DNA from: Patescibacteria group bacterium
GTDB lineage: Bacteria; Patescibacteriota; Doudnabacteria; UBA920
Direction of reading: 5' to 3'
Assembly (NCBI GenBank): GCA_036726225.1
Contig: DAIMCS010000003.1
Span: 9,769 to 73,768, forward strand
Length of the DNA: 64,000 nt
The notes under the pieces were generated by a model. The model was not told where the DNA came from. It saw only the letters and a list, made by a program, of their open reading frames with translations, and searched no databases. A program made the translations under genes and the position numbers. Below, piece by piece: positions 341 through 64,000 of this stretch (positions are counted from its first letter, which is position 1; each line of letters opens with the position of its first letter).

Positions 341-399
341 CGCCTCCGGCGGAAATAATATCCGCATTAGTATAGCAGAAAAGCGGGCGATTTAAAATT

Positions 400-434
400 C
401 CCCTCCCTTTATGGGAGGGGTTAGGGGAGGGTGG
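400..434. repeat. GC-only palindromic element, family A (CCCCTCCCTTTATGGGAGGGGTTAGGGGAGGGTGG), intergenic copy
   Basis: A stem-loop plus a half-copy tail. It abuts the stop codon of the minus-strand ORF at 435. Related copies are at 24715..24749 and 40279..40361, with variants at 10187..10225 and 18093..18119. Confidence 0.7.
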
Positions 435-716
435 CTATTGCTCAATACTATTTAACTCGTTTTGGATTTCAATGTGGTTCTGGATTTCTGAAGTGTTATT
501 TAGTTTAACTTGTTCTATGGCGCTGTCGCCGGTTTTTTTCACCGACTCCCGACTGCTCGAGCCGCCATAATACATAGCAAAAATAATTGCAATTATTACA
601 ATTGCTAAAATTAGGGAAATTAATACAAAGCCTTGATTTTTGTCTGAAGCGATCATTTTTGTTATTATAGCATAATCTACGCGGAACGAATTCACGTTAA
701 AAAAATTGGAGGACAA
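435..716 (-). CDS. hypothetical small membrane protein with one N-terminal transmembrane segment
   Basis: 93-aa ORF. The hydrophobic segment is GFVLISLILAIVIIAIIFAMYY. It is pilin-like but lacks the Glu at +5. Confidence 0.4.
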   Translation of the reverse strand: MSSNFFNVNSFRVDYAIITKMIASDKNQGFVLISLILAIVIIAIIFAMYYGGSSSRESVKKTGDSAIEQVKLNNTSEIQNHIEIQNELNSIEQ

Positions 717-8654: not shown

Positions 8655-10175
8655 ATGACGACAAAAAAAGCGCCATTTGTTTTAATTGTGCTGGATGGGT
8701 GGGGATACAGGGAAGGCAAGGACCACAATGCCATTGCCGAAGCCAACACGCCGGTTTACGATCATTTGCTTAAAACATATCCGCATACTTTTCTGCACGC
8801 CAGCCAGGAGCACGTGGGCTTGCCGCAGGGTACCATTGGCAACAGCGAAATTGGGCACATGACTATGGGCGCGGGTAAAGTTATGGATACAGATTTAGTT
8901 AGGGTTTCCAAAGCAATGGAAAACCACGATTTTTATACAAACCAAGCGTTTGTAAATTTGTTTGATCACGTAAAAAAGTTTAATTCAACTTTGCATATTA
9001 TGGGGTTAGTCAGCCCGCGCGGGGTGCATAGCCACCAGGAGCATTTGCACGGATTTTTAGAGGCGGCCAAAAAAGTCGGGCTTGAAAAAGTGGTAATTCA
9101 TGCTTTTACTGACGGCCGCGATGCCCCGCCCCAGAGCGCCGCTGAATATTTGTCAGAGCTGGAAAAAGTTATCTCAGATTTAGGCATCGGCTACATTGCT
9201 ACGGCAACAGGCAGATACTATTCCATGGACCGTGACAATAACTGGGACAGGACAAAAAAAGCCGAGGACGCAATATTCCGCGCCAAGGGGAAGGCTGTAC
9301 GAGGCCAAAAACCGTCTGAAACAATGAAAGAACTTTACAAAGAGGGGATTATGGACGAACTTTTAGAGCCTGTAATTTTTTTGGATGACAGCGGCAAAGC
9401 TTACAAAATAGAGGACAACGATGGCGTGTTTTTCTTTAATTTTCGCAATGACCGGACACGGCAGCTATCTCAAAAAATATTGGAAGCATCGAAACATAAA
9501 AATTTGCATTTTGTTACCCTAACCGAATACCACCCCGCCTTTGAAAGCAGCGTGGCTTTCCCGCCAAATAAAATTGAAACCACCCTCGGTTACGAAATTA
9601 GCAGAGCCGGGCTAAACCAGGCGCATATTGCCGAAACTGACAAATACGCGCACGTAACTTATTTTTTTAACGGGGGAAGACAGGAACCCTATGAAAATGA
9701 AATTGATATTTTGGTGGAAAGCCGCAAAGATATAAAAACGCACGACCAGGCGCCGGAAATGAAAGCCGCGGAAATTACACAAAAGGCTTTTGAAATGCTG
9801 GGAAAAGGAGTTGAATTTATTTTAATAAATTATGCCAATGCCGACCTTGTAGGCCATACGGCCAATAAGCCGGCAGTAATTACGGCCGTGGAAACTTTAG
9901 ATACAGAGCTGGAAAAGATTGTGGAAAAAGTTTTATCTTTGGGAGGGAGTTTAATAGTTACCGCTGACCACGGGAATGCGGAAGTTAATTTTGACGAAAA
10001 AGCCGGTGTGCTCCACACCGCCCACACCACAAACTTAGTTCCATTTATTTTAGTCAGAGAGGGGAATTATAAGCTTAAAGAAAGCGGCAGCCTTGCCGAT
10101 GTTGCGCCCACTATTTTGCAGCTTATGAATCTAAACAAACCAAAAGCTATGACCGGCCAAAGCCTTATAAAATGA
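8655..10175 (+). CDS. gpmI: 2,3-bisphosphoglycerate-independent phosphoglycerate mutase
   Basis: 506 aa with the iPGM motifs VLDGWG, GHMTMGAG and ADHGNAE. Confidence 0.9.
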   Translation: MTTKKAPFVLIVLDGWGYREGKDHNAIAEANTPVYDHLLKTYPHTFLHASQEHVGLPQGTIGNSEIGHMTMGAGKVMDTDLVRVSKAMENHDFYTNQAFVNLFDHVKKFNSTLHIMGLVSPRGVHSHQEHLHGFLEAAKKVGLEKVVIHAFTDGRDAPPQSAAEYLSELEKVISDLGIGYIATATGRYYSMDRDNNWDRTKKAEDAIFRAKGKAVRGQKPSETMKELYKEGIMDELLEPVIFLDDSGKAYKIEDNDGVFFFNFRNDRTRQLSQKILEASKHKNLHFVTLTEYHPAFESSVAFPPNKIETTLGYEISRAGLNQAHIAETDKYAHVTYFFNGGRQEPYENEIDILVESRKDIKTHDQAPEMKAAEITQKAFEMLGKGVEFILINYANADLVGHTANKPAVITAVETLDTELEKIVEKVLSLGGSLIVTADHGNAEVNFDEKAGVLHTAHTTNLVPFILVREGNYKLKESGSLADVAPTILQLMNLNKPKAMTGQSLIK

Positions 10176-10240
10176 GCCCGAACCAACCTCTCCCCCGACC
10201 CCTCTCCAAACTTGGAGAGGGGAGGAATGAATTGTAAACT

Positions 10241-11995
10241 ATGCAGACACTGACCAAGCAAACTTTAAAAATTTATTGGCAGCATGCCAGAAAATACAAA
10301 ATCCACGCTTTCGGGATTTTTGTTTTTTTGCTTTTGCACAGTGCGGCGGAAAGCAGCGGGCCGTTTTTGTATAAGCAATTTATTAACCACCTAACCACTT
10401 ACGATTTTTCCCGTTACTCAAAACTTTTAGGCATCCTAGGCTTAATTGTAGGCGCGCGCTTAATCCGCTCCTACGCTTTTAGAGCTAAGGACTACATACA
10501 AAACTATTTTGAAACCCGCATAATGGCGGACTTAAACAACACTTGTTTTAAATATTTGCACCAAAATTCTTACGGATTTTTTTCCGGCAATTTTGTGGGC
10601 AGCCTGGTTAACAAAGTCAAAAAAATGGAACGTGGTTTTGAAACCGTGGCCGACCGCATAATTGACGATTTTTTACGTTCTTTTTTTTCCATCTCTATTG
10701 CCACGATTATGTTGTTTTTCAGCCACTGGCTTTTGGGCCTGGCTTTGCTGCTTTGGTGTATGGTTTATATTGGCACCATCTACTACTTTTCGGTTTTTAG
10801 AATTATGAAGTATAACTTAAAAAAAGCAGAACTCGACACCAGGCTCACTGCCCAACTGGCAGACACCATTACCAATAACGCAAACATAAAACTTTTTAGC
10901 AGCTTTGCCAGGGAGGCGGCGGGTTTTGGCAAAATAAATGAACAGCATTACAGAATGCGCCGCAAGTCGTGGAATTTAATGACTTATTTGGAAGTTTTGC
11001 AAAGCACGTTAATGCTTTTTTTGGAAGGCATTATGATGTATTTCGGCATTAAATACTGGCGCGAAGGGATTTTGACTGTGGGCGATTTTACTTTAATCCA
11101 GCTGTATATTTTTGCTATTTTTGACCGGTTGTGGGTAATGGGCAAGCAGGTTCGGGCGTTTTACGAAGCTTTGGCCGACTCAAATGAAATGACAGAAATT
11201 TTGCTCACCCCCCACGAAGTGGTGGATGTGCCAAATGCAAAAATTTTGCAGGCCGGCCGGGGAAGTATAGAGTTTAAAAAGGTAAGTTTTGGCTACCATT
11301 CCAAAGAGAATATTTTTCAGGATTTTAGTTTAAAAATTTCACCTTCGGAAAGACTGGCTTTAATTGGCCCGTCCGGCGGCGGGAAATCTACAATTGTTAA
11401 ATTATTATTCCGTTTTCACGATATAGATAAAGGTGAAATTTTAATTGACGGCCAGAATATTGCCCGGGTGAGCCAGGATTCCCTGCACAACTCTCTGTCC
11501 TTAGTGCCGCAGGATCCCATACTTTTTCACCGCACCTTAATGGAAAATATCCGTTACTCCAGGCCCGGCGCGTCAGATGAGGAAGTGATGGCCGCAGCCA
11601 AAGCCGCGCACGCCCATGAGTTTATAACCGGCTCCCAGTACGGCTACAATACTTTTGTCGGAGAGCGGGGCATTAAACTTTCTGGCGGCCAAAGGCAACG
11701 CGTGGCCATTGCGCGCGCAATCTTAAAAAATGCGCCCATACTGGTTTTAGATGAAGCCACGTCATCACTCGACAGCGAAAGCGAAAGTTACATTCAGGAC
11801 GCGCTTAAGGTTTTAATGAAAGATAAAACTGTCATTGTCATTGCTCACCGGCTTTCAACTATTATGCAAATGGACAGGATTATTGTTTTAGACAGCGGCA
11901 AAATTGTGGAAGAAGGCAAACATGCAGAGCTCTTAAAGGTACAGCAGGGCACCTACCAGCGCCTGTGGCAAATTCAGGCAGGTGGTTTTGCGTAG
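10241..11995 (+). CDS. ABC transporter with fused permease and ATPase (MsbA/exporter type)
   Basis: Six-TM N-terminal domain. Walker A GPSGGGKST. ABC signature LSGGQRQRVAIARA. Walker B ILVLDEATS. Confidence 0.85.
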   Translation: MQTLTKQTLKIYWQHARKYKIHAFGIFVFLLLHSAAESSGPFLYKQFINHLTTYDFSRYSKLLGILGLIVGARLIRSYAFRAKDYIQNYFETRIMADLNNTCFKYLHQNSYGFFSGNFVGSLVNKVKKMERGFETVADRIIDDFLRSFFSISIATIMLFFSHWLLGLALLLWCMVYIGTIYYFSVFRIMKYNLKKAELDTRLTAQLADTITNNANIKLFSSFAREAAGFGKINEQHYRMRRKSWNLMTYLEVLQSTLMLFLEGIMMYFGIKYWREGILTVGDFTLIQLYIFAIFDRLWVMGKQVRAFYEALADSNEMTEILLTPHEVVDVPNAKILQAGRGSIEFKKVSFGYHSKENIFQDFSLKISPSERLALIGPSGGGKSTIVKLLFRFHDIDKGEILIDGQNIARVSQDSLHNSLSLVPQDPILFHRTLMENIRYSRPGASDEEVMAAAKAAHAHEFITGSQYGYNTFVGERGIKLSGGQRQRVAIARAILKNAPILVLDEATSSLDSESESYIQDALKVLMKDKTVIVIAHRLSTIMQMDRIIVLDSGKIVEEGKHAELLKVQQGTYQRLWQIQAGGFA

Positions 11996-15876: not shown

Positions 15877-16948
15877 ATTGGAAGTTGTTTTAAGGCACTA
15901 CGACTACCAATTGCCCAAAGAATTAATTGCCCAAGCTCCATTAAAACCGCGCGACAGGGCGCGGCTTTTAATATACAGGCCAACAAACAGCAAAACCAGG
16001 GCCTCTGGCGCTATTAAATTTGATAGATTTTACAATATCGGAAAGTATTTACCCAAAAATTCGGTTTTGGTTTTTAACCAAACCAAAGTTGTGCCGGCCA
16101 GGTTGTGGATGAAAAAACCAAGCGGCGGAAAGGTCCAAATTCTTTATATTGGCCAGGAAGACGGGTTAATTAAGGTCATAGCGGACAGGAAATTATCTAT
16201 AGGATCAATTTTACAGCTAAACCAACATAAGTTTATTGTAAAAAATCAAAAAGAGAACTTTTATTTCCTAAAATTACAATCTAAAATCAGCATCGAGAAA
16301 TTAATGCAAAAATTTGGCCAAACGCCTTTGCCGCCATATATTAAGAATTCTCCGCTTACCGAAAGCCAGAGGCGCAAGGAGTACCAATCAATTTTTGCCA
16401 AAGCCGGATTGTCAGTTGCGGCGCCCACAGCATCGCTGCATTTTACTAAAAAGTTAATCAGCAAACTCAAAAAGCAGGGGATTGAGGTTAAATTTGTAAC
16501 CTTGAACGTAAATTTAGGAACTTTTGCGCCGCTGAAAGAGGAAAATTTGAAAACCGGCACCCTCCATAGCGAAACTTATGAGATTGATAAAAAAACTGCC
16601 TACGATCTGAACCGGTTAAAAAAAGAAAGCAAAACAATCATCGCAGTTGGCACAACGGTGGTAAGAACTTTAGAATCCGCTGCCCGTCCCTTCCATTCCC
16701 GCGAAAGCGGGAATCCAGAATTTGAAATATCAAAGCTATCAGGCGATACCAAGCTCTTCATCAGACCCGGCTATAAATTTAAATTTGTAGACGGCTTAAT
16801 TACCAACTTCCACGTCCCTAAAAGCAGCTTAATGATGCTTGTTGGGGCACTTATTGGCAGAAAAAAATTGTTGGAGCTGTATCAAAAGGCTATAAAAAAT
16901 AAATTCCGCTTCTTTTCGTTTGGCGATGGAATGTTGATTTTAAAATAA
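15869..16948 (+). CDS. queA: S-adenosylmethionine:tRNA ribosyltransferase-isomerase
   Basis: YDYQLPKELIAQAPLKPRDRARLLIY is a QueA N-terminal signature. The gene is 359 aa. Confidence 0.8.
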   Translation: MPKLEVVLRHYDYQLPKELIAQAPLKPRDRARLLIYRPTNSKTRASGAIKFDRFYNIGKYLPKNSVLVFNQTKVVPARLWMKKPSGGKVQILYIGQEDGLIKVIADRKLSIGSILQLNQHKFIVKNQKENFYFLKLQSKISIEKLMQKFGQTPLPPYIKNSPLTESQRRKEYQSIFAKAGLSVAAPTASLHFTKKLISKLKKQGIEVKFVTLNVNLGTFAPLKEENLKTGTLHSETYEIDKKTAYDLNRLKKESKTIIAVGTTVVRTLESAARPFHSRESGNPEFEISKLSGDTKLFIRPGYKFKFVDGLITNFHVPKSSLMMLVGALIGRKKLLELYQKAIKNKFRFFSFGDGMLILK

Positions 16949-17708: not shown

Positions 17709-17743
17709 TTAGATATCAATTAATAAACAGCCCTTCAAAAAAC

Positions 17744-17763
17744 CCTGCCGGCCGGCAGGCAGG
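17744..17763. repeat. perfect 20-bp palindrome, family B (CCTGCCGGCCGGCAGGCAGG), in the hup 5'UTR
   Basis: Self-complementary. It lies between the promoter and the hup ribosome-binding site. Confidence 0.7.
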
Positions 17764-17806
17764 CTCCCTAAAGAGGGAACCACAGAGAGGCTAGGAGACA
17801 AAAAGT

Positions 17807-18079
17807 ATGACAAAGTCAGAGATTTTGCAGGCTTTAGCCGACAAATTAGGCAAAACCCGCAAGGAAGTAAGTGAATTTATGGACGCCATGGTAGAATTGG
17901 CTTACCATATAACCAAAAAAGAAGGAGAATTCGTTATTCCTGGCATGGGTAAGCTCCAAAAAAAGCACCGAGACGCTAGAATGGGCCGAAATCCGGCAAC
18001 CGGCGAATCCATATCAATTCCCGCCAAAACAGTGCTTAAATTCCGCGTAGCCAAACAAGCCAAAGACGCTATCTTGTAA
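17807..18079 (+). CDS. hup: HU/IHF-family DNA-binding protein
   Basis: GRNPATGESISIPAKTVLKFRVAKQAKDA is the HU arm signature. The protein is 90 aa. Confidence 0.9.
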   Translation: MTKSEILQALADKLGKTRKEVSEFMDAMVELAYHITKKEGEFVIPGMGKLQKKHRDARMGRNPATGESISIPAKTVLKFRVAKQAKDAIL

Positions 18080-18092
18080 ACAAATAGATTTT

Positions 18093-18126
18093 AATCCCTC
18101 CCTAATATGGGGAGGGATTTTAATTT
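18093..18126 (+). terminator. terminator hairpin (family A-like: AATCCCTCCC-taatatg-GGGAGGGATT)
   Basis: 10-bp stem followed by TTAATTTT. Confidence 0.55.
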
Positions 18127-20560: not shown

Positions 20561-20665
20561 TACAACGGCGATCTTAATTTAGGTAAAAATTATACGGGAT
20601 CCATCTCTCGACTTCGCTAGAGACAGGAAAATAGATTCCGGATAAATTTAATAATATAAATTTTC

Positions 20666-20685
20666 CCTGCCTGCCGGCAGGCAGG
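20666..20685. repeat. perfect 20-bp palindrome, family B (CCTGCCTGCCGGCAGGCAGG), downstream of fmt
   Basis: Self-complementary. Confidence 0.7.
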
Positions 20686-20703
20686 CGGAATGACATGAGT
20701 TTT

Positions 20704-24467: not shown

Positions 24468-25811
24468 ATGAAAGTAGATATTGCCGGATTAAAAGTTGAC
24501 GCAATCAGTAAAGCAGAATTACTGATTGAGGTAATTTCCAGAATAAAAGCAAGCCAAAAAACCTGGGTAACTACGGTGTACTCGGAGTTTTTGTATGCGG
24601 CCTTAAAGGACCCAAAAATAGTTGAATTGTTAAATAAGGCCAATATTGCCGTGCCCGACGGCATTGGGATTTTTTGGGCGAAAAAATATTTGGAAATTCC
24701 GCTTTCTTTTCATTCCCCCCCTTTAAAAAAGGGGGGGTTAGGGGGGGTTAAATACTGGCTTATGGTTTTAAAGGCTTGCTGGCAAATTAAGTATTCTTTG
24801 GCCGCGATATTATTTAACTCCAAGTGGATAAAATCTGCTCTGCCTGAAAAAATAGTGGGCGCAGACTTAATTTGGGATTTGGCCAAACTTGCATCGGATA
24901 ACAATCTTTCAATGTTTTTACTCGGTGGCCACGGCGACACTCCAGAAATTGTTGCTGCGGCAATGAAAGCAAAATATAGCGGCTTAAAATTTGTGGGATC
25001 ATCCAACAAGAACCCAGGTGACCCTTCAACCATAACAGAAATAAATAGCTTAGCACCCGATATTTTGCTGGTGGCTTACGGCCCGCTTCGGCAGGAGAAA
25101 TGGATTTTTGAAAACTTGCTTCATCTGAATGTAAAATTTGCTATGGGCGTTGGCGGCTCGTTCGATTACATTGCGGGTAAAAAATCTGCTCCGCCAAAAT
25201 TTATCCGCTCCTTTGGCCTGGAATGGTTGTGGCGGCTTATTACCCAGCCGCAACGTTTTAAAAGAATTATTAACGCGACTTTTGGGCTGGCGTGGCTTTT
25301 GTGGCACTACAAAGTTTTTAGCAATTTGCCCTTTAGGCCAAATGTAGCAACTGTTATAACGAACAAAGAAAATAAAATTTTGGTTTGCCAGCGCAACCCA
25401 AAAGATTTCCACGTGGACGTTGTCACAACTAAAGATAATTTAAAAAGCAAAAATTATTGGCAACTGCCGCAGGGCGGCGTTGATGTCAAAGAAGATTTGA
25501 TTGCAGCAGCAAGACGTGAAGCCTTTGAGGAAACCGGCCTTAAAAATTTGGAGCTTTTTGGGGTATCAACATCCACCCACAGCTATGTTTGGAATAATGC
25601 GTTGCGGGGTTTTTGGAAAAATCGTGACAAAGCAAACGTTGGCCAAAAGCAAAACATTGTTTATTTTAAATTTTGGGGAAGTGATAATGAAATAAAAGTT
25701 GACGGAGAAGAATTTATTAATTATAAGTGGGTTAAAATAAGTGAGCTTGAAAAGGCGGTACATCCCGAGCGCTTGCCTTTGGCTAAAATAATAGTGGTAG
25801 ACTTAGCTTGA
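24468..25811 (+). CDS. WecB/TagA/CpsF-family glycosyltransferase fused to a C-terminal NUDIX hydrolase
   Basis: N-terminus: PDGIGIFWA...LLGGHGDTPEIV... (WecG/TagA fold). C-terminus: GGVDVKEDLIAAARREAFEETG, the Nudix box. One continuous 447-aa ORF. Confidence 0.65.
   Translation: MKVDIAGLKVDAISKAELLIEVISRIKASQKTWVTTVYSEFLYAALKDPKIVELLNKANIAVPDGIGIFWAKKYLEIPLSFHSPPLKKGGLGGVKYWLMVLKACWQIKYSLAAILFNSKWIKSALPEKIVGADLIWDLAKLASDNNLSMFLLGGHGDTPEIVAAAMKAKYSGLKFVGSSNKNPGDPSTITEINSLAPDILLVAYGPLRQEKWIFENLLHLNVKFAMGVGGSFDYIAGKKSAPPKFIRSFGLEWLWRLITQPQRFKRIINATFGLAWLLWHYKVFSNLPFRPNVATVITNKENKILVCQRNPKDFHVDVVTTKDNLKSKNYWQLPQGGVDVKEDLIAAARREAFEETGLKNLELFGVSTSTHSYVWNNALRGFWKNRDKANVGQKQNIVYFKFWGSDNEIKVDGEEFINYKWVKISELEKAVHPERLPLAKIIVVDLA
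24715..24749 (+). repeat. family A GC-palindrome inserted in frame in the WecB domain, encoding SPPLKKGGLGGV
   Basis: CCCCCCCTTTAAAAAAGGGGGGGTTAGGGGGGGTT. It sits in an insertion of about 40 aa relative to canonical WecG/TagA, between the DGxGxxWA motif and the PEKIxGxDL motif. Confidence 0.6.
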
Positions 25812-34412: not shown

Positions 34413-34453
34413 ATCCCATTCCCGCGCAGGCGGGAATCTATAATTTAAGATTT

Positions 34454-34481
34454 AAAAACCCCCGAGTAACGGGGGTTTTTT
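34454..34481. terminator. bidirectional terminator
   Basis: AAAAA-CCCCCG-agtaa-CGGGGG-TTTTTT. Confidence 0.6.
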
Positions 34482-39439: not shown

Positions 39440-40624
39440 TCAGGCAGTTTTCCCGCCCGCTGCCTGTTCTAAATATTTTTCCACAAGTTCGTCCAATTCC
39501 CCGTTTAAAACACTATCCGGGTCGCTGGTTTCAAAGTCAGTCCTGTGGTCTTTAACCATTTTGTATGGATGTAAAACGTAAGAGCGGATTTGGTTGCCCC
39601 ATTCTGCAGATTTAAACTCCCCACGGATCTCCTGTTTTTCTTTTTGCAGCTTTTCTTCTTCCAGGGTTTTAAGCCTGGACATTAAAATTTTCATTGCCAC
39701 TTCCCTGTTTTGGTGCTGGCTGCGTTCGTTTTGGATGGAAACTTTTATGCCGCTTGGAATATGTGTAATGCGAATGGCCGAATAGGTTGTGTTAACGCTT
39801 TGTCCGCCGTGCCCGCTGGCGGTGTTGGCCTCAATTTTTAAATCTTTTTCATCTACCTTAAATTCTTCTTTTTCTTCCAAAAGCGGCAGGAGTTCTAAAA
39901 GCGCGAACGATGTTTCCCGGGTGTGAGCGGGGTTGAAGGGCGATAATCGTACGAGCCTATGTACACCCGCTTCGCTTTTTAAAAGTCCATACGCATAAGT
40001 CCCGTGGACTTCCACCACTGCTGTCTTAACCCCGTTTTGGTCCCCCCTTGAGAGTTCCAAAACTTCCGTAGTAAAACCTTTGCGTTCGCAATAGCGCAAA
40101 AACATTCTAAGCAGCATTTCGGCCCAGTCCTGTGCGTCTACTCCGCCGGCTCCGGAATGAATGGAAAAAATTGCGTTATGGTCGTCGTATTTTTTGGAGA
40201 GCAAGGCGACAAAACGGTTTTGTTTGTATAAATTTTCTAAACTTTCAATTTGTTTTTTTAGATAATCTAAATCATTTTCACCCCTCCCTAGCCCTCCCCC
40301 TAAAGGGGAGGGAACGGCTGCAGCTTCCCCTCCCTTGATGGGAGGGGTTAGGGGAGGGTGGTTTTCTTTAGATAAGTCTTTAACTAACTCCAAATTCTCA
40401 ACAACTTGTTTTTCCAAATTTTGCCAAAAATCGTAAAACTTTTTTAGCTGGTCGTACTCTTGGGAAACTTTTTTAGCATGCTGATTGTCTGCCCAAAAAT
40501 TTGGCTGCTGCATTAAATCTTCCAATTCCAAAATCTTTTGCTCTTTTTGCGGCAAATTTAAATGGATTTTAAGATTTAAGATTTCAGATTTAAGATTTTC
40601 AAGGCGCTTAATAAGGTCGTTCAT
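39440..40624 (-). CDS. prfB: peptide chain release factor 2 with no programmed frameshift, carrying an in-frame 28-aa insertion
   Basis: SPF and GGQ motifs (RLSPFNPAHTRETSFA, SGHGGQSVNTT). 394 aa against a typical length of about 365. Confidence 0.85.
   Translation of the reverse strand: MNDLIKRLENLKSEILNLKIHLNLPQKEQKILELEDLMQQPNFWADNQHAKKVSQEYDQLKKFYDFWQNLEKQVVENLELVKDLSKENHPPLTPPIKGGEAAAVPSPLGGGLGRGENDLDYLKKQIESLENLYKQNRFVALLSKKYDDHNAIFSIHSGAGGVDAQDWAEMLLRMFLRYCERKGFTTEVLELSRGDQNGVKTAVVEVHGTYAYGLLKSEAGVHRLVRLSPFNPAHTRETSFALLELLPLLEEKEEFKVDEKDLKIEANTASGHGGQSVNTTYSAIRITHIPSGIKVSIQNERSQHQNREVAMKILMSRLKTLEEEKLQKEKQEIRGEFKSAEWGNQIRSYVLHPYKMVKDHRTDFETSDPDSVLNGELDELVEKYLEQAAGGKTA
40279..40361. 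repeat. family A GC-palindrome as two inverted units, inserted in frame in prfB and encoding NHPPLTPPIKGGEAAAVPSPLGGGLGRGE
   Basis: CACCCCTCCCTAGCCCTCCCCCTAAAGGGGAGGG...CCCCTCCCTTGATGGGAGGGGTTAGGGGAGGGTGG. Confidence 0.7.
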
Positions 40625-40716: not shown

Positions 40717-41184
40717 CTATTTGTGACGGCTGAAAATTCCGCGAAACCAGGACATCTGACGCGGAGGTTGGACCGGTTTTTCCGTTTCTTCCGATCGCTC
40801 CTTTATCCACGCCTCTATTTCCTCCTTCGACGGCATTACTTCTGCCGCGTGATTTTCGCACAGCTCAATACTTCGGACACAAAACAGTCTTATGAGCTGC
40901 GAAAGGGGTGTTGATCTGTTTTCGCTTAATCTTTCCATCAGTGGATAGACATCCTGTTCAAGCTTGATGAATTTTCGACCGGCAGGCGGTTCTTCAGTAG
41001 CTGGGAGAATTGGCTTAAACAGGGTCCCGCAAAATTCAGATCTGACCATCACATAACTAAAGTGATTTACCCATCTCTGCAAGGGCTGGTTTCCTGTCCT
41101 TGCGAGAAGGATATTTAGCCGCTCTTGTTCTGATTCTTTTAGGGCAAAGCTTACGCTAAGCCACTTTTGGGTGCTGTCTTCCAT
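40717..41184 (-). CDS. hypothetical protein, GC-elevated. Start set at MEDSTQ; the track's 41340 start would overlap folA.
   Basis: About 48% GC. A minus-strand terminator AGGCGCCCGG...CCGGCGCCT-TTTTAATTT lies at 40672..40705. Confidence 0.45.
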   Translation of the reverse strand: MEDSTQKWLSVSFALKESEQERLNILLARTGNQPLQRWVNHFSYVMVRSEFCGTLFKPILPATEEPPAGRKFIKLEQDVYPLMERLSENRSTPLSQLIRLFCVRSIELCENHAAEVMPSKEEIEAWIKERSEETEKPVQPPRQMSWFRGIFSRHK

Positions 41185-41269
41185 CGGGTGTCCTCTTGTT
41201 TGGCGCGAAGACCCCGTAGGATAAACTTTTGAAAGTATATCAAAAAAGCCCTTGAGAATCAAGGGCTTT

Positions 41270-41746
41270 TTAGTCTTTCCTTTTGTACTTTGCGAAAGTG
41301 AATTTTTTGTGCTTTTCTTCTTCGAGCTTTTCCCATTCACTCCATTTTATGGCCGGGAAAAAAGCGTCGCCCAAATAATTTTCGTGAACATGGGTTATGT
41401 ACATTAAATTTGCAAGAGGCAGGGCCAGTTTATAAATTTCCGCGCCGCCAATTATGTAAATATCTTCCGGCAATGACTTTATTGCCTCATCTAATGACGA
41501 AAAAACTAAAACGCCTTCAGGCGCTTTGTAGTCTTTTTGCCTGCTTATAATTACATTTTTTCTGTTGGGTAAAGGTTTGCCCAGGCGTTTTAAAATAGAT
41601 TCAAAAGTTTTCCTGCCCATTAGGACAGTTTTGCCTAAAGTCAATTCCTTGAAGTGTTTTAAGTCCTCGGGCAAATGCCACGGCAAATCATTGTCCTTGC
41701 CAATGACCAGATTTTCAGCTACCGCGACTGGGCCTAAGATAATCAT
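41270..41746 (-). CDS. folA: dihydrofolate reductase
   Basis: IGKDNDLPWHLPEDLKHFKELTLGKTVLMGRKTFESI. Confidence 0.85.
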   Translation of the reverse strand: MIILGPVAVAENLVIGKDNDLPWHLPEDLKHFKELTLGKTVLMGRKTFESILKRLGKPLPNRKNVIISRQKDYKAPEGVLVFSSLDEAIKSLPEDIYIIGGAEIYKLALPLANLMYITHVHENYLGDAFFPAIKWSEWEKLEEEKHKKFTFAKYKRKD

Positions 41747-62873: not shown

Positions 62874-64000
62874 ATGCACAGAACACTTAGTTTAGAAACA
62901 CCTAATAAAATTGGCCAAAACGTCAGCCTGTCCGGCTGGGTAAACTCCCGCCGCGACCACGGTGGCGTTATTTTTATTGATTTGCGGGACCATACCGGCA
63001 TTGTGCAGCTGGCCATCCACCCCGAGGCGGCTGAGGCTTTTAAAGCAGCGGACAAATGCCGCGACGAATATGTAGTTAAAGTGGAAGGTAAAGTTATTGA
63101 GAGATCTAACGAAACTAAAAACAAGAACATTCCAACAGGCAGTGTTGAAATTTTTGTTTCTCATATTGCGATATTAAACGCTTCCAAACCGCTACCTTTT
63201 CCTATTGCCCACACCGAGGACCAAAACATTAACGAAGATATCCGTTTAAAATATCGTTTTTTGGATTTGCGCCGGGACAAAATGCAAAAAATGTTGGTTA
63301 AGCGCCACAAAATGATTAAATTCATCCGTGACTGGATGGATTCTCAAGGATTTATTGAAATTACAACGCCAATACTAACATCAAGCAGTCCCGAAGGTGC
63401 CAGAGATTTTCTTGTGCCCTCCCGTCTGCATCCGGGTAAATTTTACGCCCTCCCGCAGGCTCCACAGCAATTCAAACAACTTTTAATGGTCGGAGGCGTG
63501 CCAAAATATTTTCAAATTGCTCCGTGTTTTAGGGATGAAGATCCTCGTGCAGACAGAAGCCCCGGCGAGTTTTATCAGCTAGATTTAGAGATTGCTTTTG
63601 CGGACCGTGATGAAACCGTGTTTCAAGAGCTAGAGCCTTTATTTATTGCGTTAACCGAAGAATTTAGTGTCGGTCCCGACGCTTACGGTCGGGACTCCGA
63701 TTCCGTCGAAGGCGGACGTCGGAGTAAAAAATGTTTGCAAAAACCCTTTCCCCGTCTCCCCTATCTTGAGGCTATGGAAAAGTACGGAACTGACCGACCG
63801 GATTTAAGGTTTGGTATGGAAATGGTTAACTTAACCGAAGATTTAGCTGAAACTAAATTTTCTGTTTTTGGCAATGCTATAAAAAATGGCGGGGCTGTTA
63901 AAGCTATTTGCCTCAATGGCGGAGCCAAGCTGACTCGTTCGCAGATTGATGAGCTTACAGAAATGGTTAAAAAAGAAGGCGCTGGCGGGTTGGCTTATAT
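62874..64000 (+). CDS. aspS: aspartyl-tRNA synthetase, N-terminal about 375 codons. The gene runs off the window end and is not in the ORF track.
   Basis: The translation from the ATG at 62874 reads MHRTLSLETPNKIGQNVSLSGWVNSRRDHGGVIFIDLRDHTGIVQLA... It contains the class II motif 1 FRDEDPRADRSPGEFYQLDLE. Confidence 0.85.
   Translation, partial: MHRTLSLETPNKIGQNVSLSGWVNSRRDHGGVIFIDLRDHTGIVQLAIHPEAAEAFKAADKCRDEYVVKVEGKVIERSNETKNKNIPTGSVEIFVSHIAILNASKPLPFPIAHTEDQNINEDIRLKYRFLDLRRDKMQKMLVKRHKMIKFIRDWMDSQGFIEITTPILTSSSPEGARDFLVPSRLHPGKFYALPQAPQQFKQLLMVGGVPKYFQIAPCFRDEDPRADRSPGEFYQLDLEIAFADRDETVFQELEPLFIALTEEFSVGPDAYGRDSDSVEGGRRSKKCLQKPFPRLPYLEAMEKYGTDRPDLRFGMEMVNLTEDLAETKFSVFGNAIKNGGAVKAICLNGGAKLTRSQIDELTEMVKKEGAGGLAY

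Follow-up and report, generated by a model that had tools for sequence, protein, structure and literature searches.

A GC-rich palindromic repeat inserted in frame at a recurrent site in domain 1 of release factor 2 from a Patescibacteria bacterium

We report that prfB, the gene for release factor 2 (RF2), in a 64-kb stretch of DNA from a Patescibacteria group bacterium (contig DAIMCS010000003.1, positions 9,769 to 73,768; hereafter the window) carries a real, lineage-specific, in-frame palindromic insertion whose translation most probably yields a disordered loop on the protein surface. The explanation we favor, and consider probable, is that a small non-autonomous palindromic repeat, selfish or neutral, inserted in frame into the turn of RF2 domain 1 and was kept there by a selection filter. 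This kind of event is already known; as far as we have checked, the repeat family, its conservation across phyla and the repeatedly used hot spot in RF2 are undescribed. The original prediction had recognized a palindromic repeat of two inverted units lying in frame in domain 1, upstream of the SPF and GGQ motifs, which our analysis confirms and to which it adds the recurrence of the insertion site, a copy in the opposite orientation in a related genome and the conservation of the repeat unit between phyla.

The prfB gene (39440-40624, minus strand) is a single uninterrupted open reading frame (ORF) for 394 amino acids (aa) without a +1 frameshift site, and it is indeed longer than typical, as most of its 120 closest orthologues have 360-367 aa. 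The curated profile TIGR00020 prfB identifies the product as RF2 (421.5 bits against a cut-off of 370), RF1 models score under their own cut-offs, and the top matches in a search of solved structures are RF2 chains. PCRF and RF-1 are the only Pfam domains in the protein, with the SPF motif at aa 228-230 (39935-39943, minus strand) and the GGQ motif at aa 273-275 (39800-39808, minus strand). RF2 activity is needed in this organism, since TGA closes 6 of the 52 long ORFs in the window, prfB itself among them. The 64-kb window holds no second RF2 gene, and it is plausible that prfB is essential in the host. An internal UGA/+1 frameshift autoregulatory site is absent both from this prfB and from all 120 Patescibacteria relatives retrieved.

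Relative to uninserted orthologues, the protein contains an extra loop of 29 residues (NHPPLTPPIKGGEAAAVPSPLGGGLGRGE) encoded by 87 nt (40277-40363, minus strand; codons 88-116). The peptide and the coordinates of the underlying element had been predicted correctly, and only the count of 28 extra residues has to be revised. The element itself is an 83-nt GC-rich composite (40279-40361) of two inverted three-arm units around a CTGCAG centre, its termini are the inverted repeats CCACCC...GGGTGG, and it lies in a window with a GC content of 39-47%. Arm A (40325-40361, plus strand) reads TTCCCCTCCC-TTGAT-GGGAGGGG-TTA-GGGGAGGG-TGG and contains an inner hairpin at 40327-40347, whereas arm B (40279-40314, minus strand) is an inverted variant unit with a register-shifted stem (CCCTCCCC/GGGGAGGG) and an inner hairpin at 40292-40312; the central spacer between them (40315-40324) holds CTGCAG at 40318-40323. 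The composite is predicted to fold into an outer stem that encloses two 8-bp hairpins, and the 87-nt insert has a folding energy of -53.5 kcal/mol (z = -4.2 against dinucleotide shuffles). Units end in TTCC.../...GTGG on one strand and CCAC.../...GGAA on the other. A possible 5-nt target-site duplication, TTTTC on the plus strand and GAAAA on the gene strand, flanks the element at 40275-40279 and 40362-40366, in which case an 82-nt element plus 5 nt would give the 87 nt observed. An Rfam scan of the insert region returned miRNA-like hairpin matches below threshold only and no family, intron included.

Within the window itself, the repeat nature of the insert is supported only modestly. An intergenic single unit at 398-434 (plus strand), directly 3' of the stop codon of the ORF at 435-716 (minus strand), equals positions 40325-40361 in 36 of 37 bases, and the 19-mer core of the unit occurs twice in the window against 0.03 occurrences expected by chance. 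The assignment of the insert to a repeat family therefore stands in that a further unit exists, although there is just one such unit in the window. Two related three-arm units are also present. The first, a C7/G7 variant at 24713-24749 (plus strand; TTCCCCCCCTTTAAAAAAGGGGGGGTTAGGGGGGGTT), is read in frame as SPPLKKGGLGGV, which forms aa 83-94 of the ORF at 24468-25811 (plus strand), a WecG/TagA glycosyltransferase fused to a NUDIX domain, and lies N-terminal to the Pfam-matched region. The second, at 10189-10226 (minus strand; CCTCTCCCC-CGA-CCCCTCTCC-AAACTT-GGAGAGGGG), is intergenic, between the ORFs at 8655-10175 and 10241-11995. The units in the window have a common layout of C-arm, loop, G-arm, TTA-like spacer and second G-arm. 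In addition, the window contains, over both strands, four canonical G-quadruplex motifs (four runs of at least three G with loops of 1-7 nt), and all of them derive from this repeat family: 413-431, 24731-24747, 40340-40358 in arm A (plus strand) and 40281-40300 in arm B (minus strand, the mRNA sense). We note this predicted G-quadruplex capacity as a sequence property of the units rather than as a function. A weaker relative, a CCCTCCCT-AATAT-GGGGAGGG hairpin, is found in intergenic DNA at 18096-18116, just past the end of an ORF at 18079.

The insert does not depend on one assembly. The same prfB is present in contigs from two other metagenome samples (JGI 3300012172 and 3300011437), which differ from the window copy by 7 and 1 nt, all outside the insert, so that the insert is identical across three independent assemblies and an assembly artefact, which the original prediction had named as a potential objection, is effectively refuted.

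We next consider the distribution of such inserts among RF2 proteins. Our orthologue set comprised the 120 best RF2 matches, all from Patescibacteria and several labelled Doudnabacteria, with 71-81% identity to the query by BLASTP and 74-85% over aligned columns; in the loci that were fetched, the gene order DHFR, hypothetical gene, prfB, ftsE, ftsX is conserved. Most orthologues have a 9-residue loop, for example NNTDESEET, at the position of the insert. Inserts occur in 33 of the 120 proteins (28%), add between 7 and 41 residues with widely varying lengths, and fall by our count into roughly eleven sequence types, including NPHPDPLPKGEG, VQARGLPSSQKQAEGLRYN, VGASFSRPSSEAGGQGQ, TTPSQSEHRDATPTLGGE, SATSPPAPPLARGGGS and two composites longer than 35 aa. 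All 33 internal insertions of at least 5 aa map to consensus positions 85-90, a span of six codons, and none is located elsewhere in the alignment, which defines a single insertion hot spot. Where the DNA of inserted orthologues was read, in five cases, the inserts are GC-rich (50-58% GC) and hairpin-forming (-31 to -87 kcal/mol), compared with 20% GC and -2.8 kcal/mol for the uninserted loop of locus L006, and the inserts of loci L002 and L003 resemble nested composites with a common 3' half. The alignment that had been proposed to determine whether the insert is lineage-specific gives a clear answer, as the closest RF2 proteins are without it: the uninserted P0006 and P0013 are 85% identical to the query and the inserted P0003, from locus L001, is 79% identical. 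In a neighbour-joining tree with the loop masked, inserted RF2 proteins are scattered among uninserted ones; the nearest to the query, P0006 and P0008, have no inserts, and the nearest neighbours of P0003 likewise have none. Moreover, the alignment did not reveal a homologous non-repeat segment at this position, which would have spoken against an inserted repeat; the extra segments of the orthologues are different sequences, and those with DNA read are GC-rich hairpins.

The prfB of locus L001, which encodes P0003, contains an 83-nt composite of the window's family at the same junction and in the opposite orientation, with an alignment score of 61 to the reverse complement of the window copy versus 42 to the same strand. 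The two orientations can be told apart as the composite is asymmetric, arm A and arm B differing by the register shift of the stem. The 5' junctions in the window and in L001 agree within 2 nt (after ...GAA), and the CTGCAG centre is common to the copies in L001, L038, L082 and L126. We read these sequences as suggesting two independent insertions at almost one nucleotide position, with replacement in situ as a possible alternative. In both genes the added length is a multiple of three, 87 nt in the window and 84 nt in L001.

The insert is located at a position where RF2 could accommodate additional residues. HMMER alignments of the protein to RF2 structure chains are split into residues 4-88 and 121-386, leaving the insert segment unaligned. 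In an AlphaFold2 model built from a 65-sequence alignment (mean pLDDT 64.6, domain 1 helices approximately 80-87), a helix at residues 47-87 is followed by residues 89-115 with pLDDT values below 50 and by a second helix at 115-143, and no secondary structure is predicted for residues 88-114. According to this model the insert makes up the turn of domain 1's long helical hairpin, far in sequence from SPF in domain 2 and GGQ in domain 3, and its predicted disorder supports the loop placement that had been proposed. The loop codons are AT-rich and belong to the lowest 5-10% of prfB. Codons 9-12, 69-75 and 226 are as AT-rich, yet never carry inserts; we therefore rejected the idea that AT-richness by itself creates the hot spot, and selection for a structurally permissive site is required. 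In addition, the near-identity of the window and L001 junctions may reflect some extra local target preference.

Together, these observations are consistent with the following scenario. A doublet of two inverted, approximately 37-nt, three-arm GC-rich hairpin units would enter the AT-rich codons of the domain 1 turn and add 87 nt (3 x 29) in a stop-free frame, leaving prfB intact. Ribosomes would then translate the element as 29 Pro/Gly-rich residues, which probably form a disordered loop. This loop would occupy the distal tip of domain 1 and stay clear of the domains for codon recognition and catalysis. Insertions elsewhere in prfB, or in a closed frame, would be lethal and so never seen, which would leave the element visible only at the permissive loop, and the same filter could account for the presence of different hairpin elements at the same loop in many related lineages. 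We infer both the neutrality of the element and its mode of mobility, which may be single-strand hairpin transposition or recombination. The suggestion that the repeat was selected to be frame-neutral is half true: it adds a multiple of 3 nt, but only three of the six combinations of frame and orientation of the composite are stop-free (four of six for a single unit). Three different frames are in use among genic copies, and a selection filter acting on random insertions explains frame neutrality as well as design does.

Several points weigh against this explanation. Exact-family copies in the window number only two, the prfB insert and the unit at 398-434, and neither a transposase nor a RAYT gene turned up among the handful of window ORFs scanned. 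The GAAAA duplication flanks the window copy and is missing at the L001 and L126 copies. A second copy of the respective insert family was not found in the 16-21 kb flanks of L002, L004 and L005; among the orthologue loci checked, L003 alone has such an extra copy, and the term mobile repeat has direct support for no types other than those of the window, L001, L003 and L126. The tree of RF2 proteins is weakly resolved, and a protein database yields intact ORFs only, so that disrupted alleles would escape notice. We infer translation of the insert from the preservation of the frame alone. Finally, neutrality is an assumption, as domain 1 binds the L11 stalk (PMC3677378, PMC5378476) and extends toward the 30S beak (PMC3677378, PMC5378476, PMC6742477).

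Alternatively, the hot spot could be inherited, with one ancient insertion into the domain 1 turn followed by divergence, nesting, gene conversion (flips included) and frequent precise loss. We regard this as unlikely, although it is the strongest competitor of independent insertion. Palindromes that lie between short direct repeats readily undergo precise deletion, and the nested appearance of the L002 and L003 inserts, the agreement of the window and L001 junctions within 2 nt and the weak resolution of the tree would all fit a common origin. However, most of the roughly eleven insert types are mutually dissimilar as peptides, and the DNA of the five types read is dissimilar as well, apart from the half that L002 and L003 have in common. 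Inserted RF2 proteins are interspersed with uninserted ones; the uninserted P0006 and P0013 are nearer to the query than the inserted P0003; the junctions are spread over six codons; and a flipped asymmetric element is not obtainable by simple divergence.

A functional, selected insert is a still less likely explanation. Here, the hairpin or G-quadruplex would tune prfB expression in place of autoregulation by +1 frameshifting, or the loop would modulate how domain 1 contacts the L11 stalk or RF3. Consistent with the first version, none of the 120 relatives has a frameshift site and all are continuous ORFs, the insert folds with the stability given above, and canonical G-quadruplex motifs are present on both strands, the window's four coming without exception from the repeat family. 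The second version draws on the fact that domain 1 touches L11 (PMC3677378, PMC5378476), and both could explain why one site has been re-used in 28% of relatives. Nevertheless, most close relatives, the nearest included, manage without any insert, lengths and sequences of the inserts are spread widely, the same units occur in intergenic DNA and in unrelated genes, and the peptide shows no conservation beyond that imposed by the DNA repeat.

It is very improbable that the segment is present in the gene and missing from the mature protein, either through translational bypassing between the duplicated GAA-AA sites or through removal at the RNA level. The identical GAAAA pentanucleotides flanking the element could serve as take-off and landing sites, and a stable hairpin begins directly after the first of them. 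However, an open frame and a length divisible by three would be needless if the segment were skipped, the putative take-off codon is not followed by a stop codon, and the GAAAA repeat is missing from the L001 and L126 copies. RNA removal is further disfavored by the lack of any intron or other RNA family match in the Rfam scan, and protein splicing by the small size of the insert, which an intein would exceed, and by the presence of no domains other than PCRF and RF-1. The possibilities differ in their predicted peptides: bypassing or excision would give ...DLSKENDLDYLK..., and read-through would give ENHPPLTPPIK or GGEAAAVPSPLGGGLGR. Least credible of all is an artefact caused by the palindrome or a vertically inherited non-repeat loop: palindromes may lead to chimeric assemblies, yet three assemblies that differ at 1-7 other positions agree on the insert, the units are present in isolate genomes and long-read assemblies too, the insert has counterparts in an intergenic repeat and in copies from other phyla, and the nearest orthologues are without it.

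Beyond RF2, the unit is widespread. A 22-mer contained in the insert, GGGAGGGGYTAGGGGAGGGTGG, occurs without mismatch at more than 117 loci in species-representative genomes (596 Gb), spread over at least nine phyla; we estimate a chance expectation of approximately 0.1. Hosts among the matches listed include Chloroflexota (Anaerolineae, Dehalococcoidia), Planctomycetota (among them Brocadiales and the isolate Botrimarina colliarenosi), Nitrospirota (Ca. Magnetobacterium), deltaproteobacterial lineages, Sideroxydans, Alphaproteobacteria (Sphingomonadales, isolates included), Chlamydiota, Spirochaetota, Acidobacteriota and the candidate phyla radiation (CPR; Uhr-, Kuenen- and Doudnabacteria). 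The C-arm and loop, which were outside the search pattern, are conserved as well among these loci. Many copies are intergenic, and in-frame copies within real proteins are common: in CPR genomes the hosts confirmed by Pfam are rsmH (PF01795), prmC, dus and a GT4 glycosyltransferase gene, and in-frame units are also found in several large membrane proteins of Anaerolineae. The ychF gene of another CPR genome (L126) contains the same composite with its CTGCAG centre in frame, and in metagenome contigs the composite-centre pattern was detected at two loci only, ychF and a second prfB of the L001 type. The 22-mer had no match in viral contigs, which leaves phage as a vector unsupported, and eight imperfect matches only in plasmids and chromids. 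A search of a 5.8-billion protein set with a 57-aa concatenate of the insert peptide gave no scored candidates.

We tentatively raise the possibility, which we hold at well under even odds, that the 37-nt three-arm unit (C-arm, loop, G-arm, YTA, G-arm; G-quadruplex-capable) is one mobile family that has spread horizontally through at least nine phyla and, in CPR bacteria with their ultra-small genomes, time and again colonizes permissive loops at the surface of core translation proteins (RF2, YchF, RsmH, PrmC, Dus). Joined to this idea, and equally speculative, is the notion that an as yet unnamed machinery mobilizes or maintains the unit and that the tip of RF2 domain 1 acts as a landing pad of near-nucleotide precision. 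If there is such a single family, these elements would be an active and general source of new protein loops. In any case, the near base-for-base conservation of the unit in very distant phyla, unlike that of classical repetitive extragenic palindromic (REP) sequences, points to horizontal spread or a conserved recognition mechanism. One group of copies stands apart. Seven loci from Sphingomonadales and Maricaulis (L042, L070, L072, L092, L104, L107 and L117) have one common unit copy, which lies 34 nt upstream of a class-III aminotransferase gene (MPRNYDIAELRRL...) and whose flanks are nearly the same. This looks like a horizontally shared segment and not like independent insertions, and we rejected a conserved regulatory role deduced from the identical flanks, as they reflect one orthologous, probably horizontally shared copy.

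In-frame palindromic repeats have precedents, and the description of the insert as unusual has to be tempered accordingly, since housekeeping genes are known to contain such repeats in the case of Rickettsia palindromic elements (RPEs) and of intragenic REP dimers (PMC10969869, PMC3733652). Like the RF2 element, the RPEs of Ogata et al. (2000, 2002), as relayed in these two sources, are palindromic, non-autonomous and in frame in unrelated housekeeping genes, and are read through as an extra peptide thought to be surface-located, in a host with a small, reduced genome. They differ, in the same accounts, in being approximately 100-150 bp long, in their restriction to Rickettsia (although other Rickettsiales may have relatives) and in having their own conserved peptide, whereas the RF2 element comprises 83 nt of 37-nt GC-rich three-arm units, has a CPR (Patescibacteria/Doudnabacteria-like) host and is built from a unit conserved in at least nine phyla; this distinction is drawn on length and host, not on a comparison of sequences. 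REP sequences offer a second parallel. Like them, the RF2 unit is a dispersed GC-rich palindrome in the range of 20-40 nt (37 nt, with an 8-bp GC stem) that is found in inverted pairs, and the composite, two inverted units forming a larger hairpin, resembles the REPIN, a concept reportedly introduced by Bertels and Rainey. Di Nocera et al. (2013; PMC3733652) described intragenic REPs from several species, more than half of them arranged as dimers or groups that encode 20-30 aa; different REPs at about one site in recB of two Xanthomonas species set a small-scale precedent for the hot spot (PMC3733652). However, the GTAG/CGTC end tag of REPs (PMC3733652) is absent from the RF2 unit, which places it outside those REP superfamilies, REP families are usually confined to a species or genus whereas the 22-mer spans phyla, and the RF2 unit includes a duplicated G-arm as its third arm, so that the doublet forms an outer stem and two hairpins.

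The element also has features of MITEs (miniature transposable elements with inverted repeats). With 83 nt it falls into their size range of 70-300 bp, although the unit falls well short of typical MITE lengths, and a target-site duplication of fixed length, as expected of a MITE, is not reproducible between copies. No parent insertion sequence is known for it. Like ERIC, BOX and cyanobacterial MITEs (PMC10969869, PMC2229807), it is small, has terminal inverted repeats and is non-coding with occasional in-frame copies. GC-rich hairpins that invade AT-rich genomes, coding genes included, are likewise a feature of mitochondrial GC clusters, double-hairpin and byp elements, and coding palindromes are described from Nematomorpha mitochondrial DNA (PMC6649704). 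The RF2 insert differs from bypass elements such as gene 60 and byp in being open in frame over 87 nt, and matched GAA-AA sites are present in the window copy only. The mitochondrial elements resemble the RF2 element in their double-hairpin architecture and differ from it in being organellar; byp elements do not preserve the frame and are skipped by the ribosome, as is the bypassed segment of T4 gene 60. Since the frame of the RF2 insert is preserved, read-through is simpler than byp-like skipping. An intein or intron is set apart from the insert by its 29 aa, the lack of a splicing domain next to PCRF and RF-1 and the absence of an Rfam family at threshold. Our literature search found no paper containing the unit sequences and nothing specific on CPR bacteria and in-frame repeats.

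The RF2 hot spot represents a natural map of permissive sites in domain 1 and a clean system in which selfish DNA meets the constraints of protein structure. It also indicates that elements of this kind are tolerated, and possibly exploited, in core genes of CPR genomes as small as approximately 1 Mb, and it bears on the annotation of Pro/Gly-rich "low-complexity" loops in metagenomic proteins.

Related CPR loci contain more in-frame GC hairpins (L004, 20253-20305; L006, 20050-20072; L126, 8190-8209). The two in L004 and L006 are different hairpins in an Aminotran_5 (cysteine-desulfurase-like) gene, which may be a second hot spot. Within the otherwise conserved neighborhood of prfB, L002 has a gene with a 23S_rRNA_IVP domain (PF05635; 12256-12642) between ftsE and ftsX that the other syntenic loci do not have there. 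The ORF between DHFR and prfB in the window (40717-41340, minus strand; 207 aa) has no Pfam match, and a gene of like size and position in L004 and L006 is likewise without one.

Finally, the window contains GC-rich hairpins of other families. Two adjoining ones at 63670-63725 (GTCCCGAC...GTCGGGAC and ACTCCGA...TCGGAGT) are in frame as GPDAYGRDSDSVEGGRR in an aspartyl-tRNA synthetase ORF (62874-63998, plus strand), where the Pfam catalytic-domain match runs approximately 15 residues longer than the profile. A GC-palindrome family, CCCTGCCGGCCGGCAGGCAGGC, has three copies at 319-340, 17743-17764 and 20665-20686, of which the first adjoins the unit at 398-434 and lies within a larger palindrome (298-358), and a further family, CCATTCCCGCG(A/C)AGGCGGGAATC with an AT-rich tail, is represented by two copies at 16693-16734 and 34416-34457.

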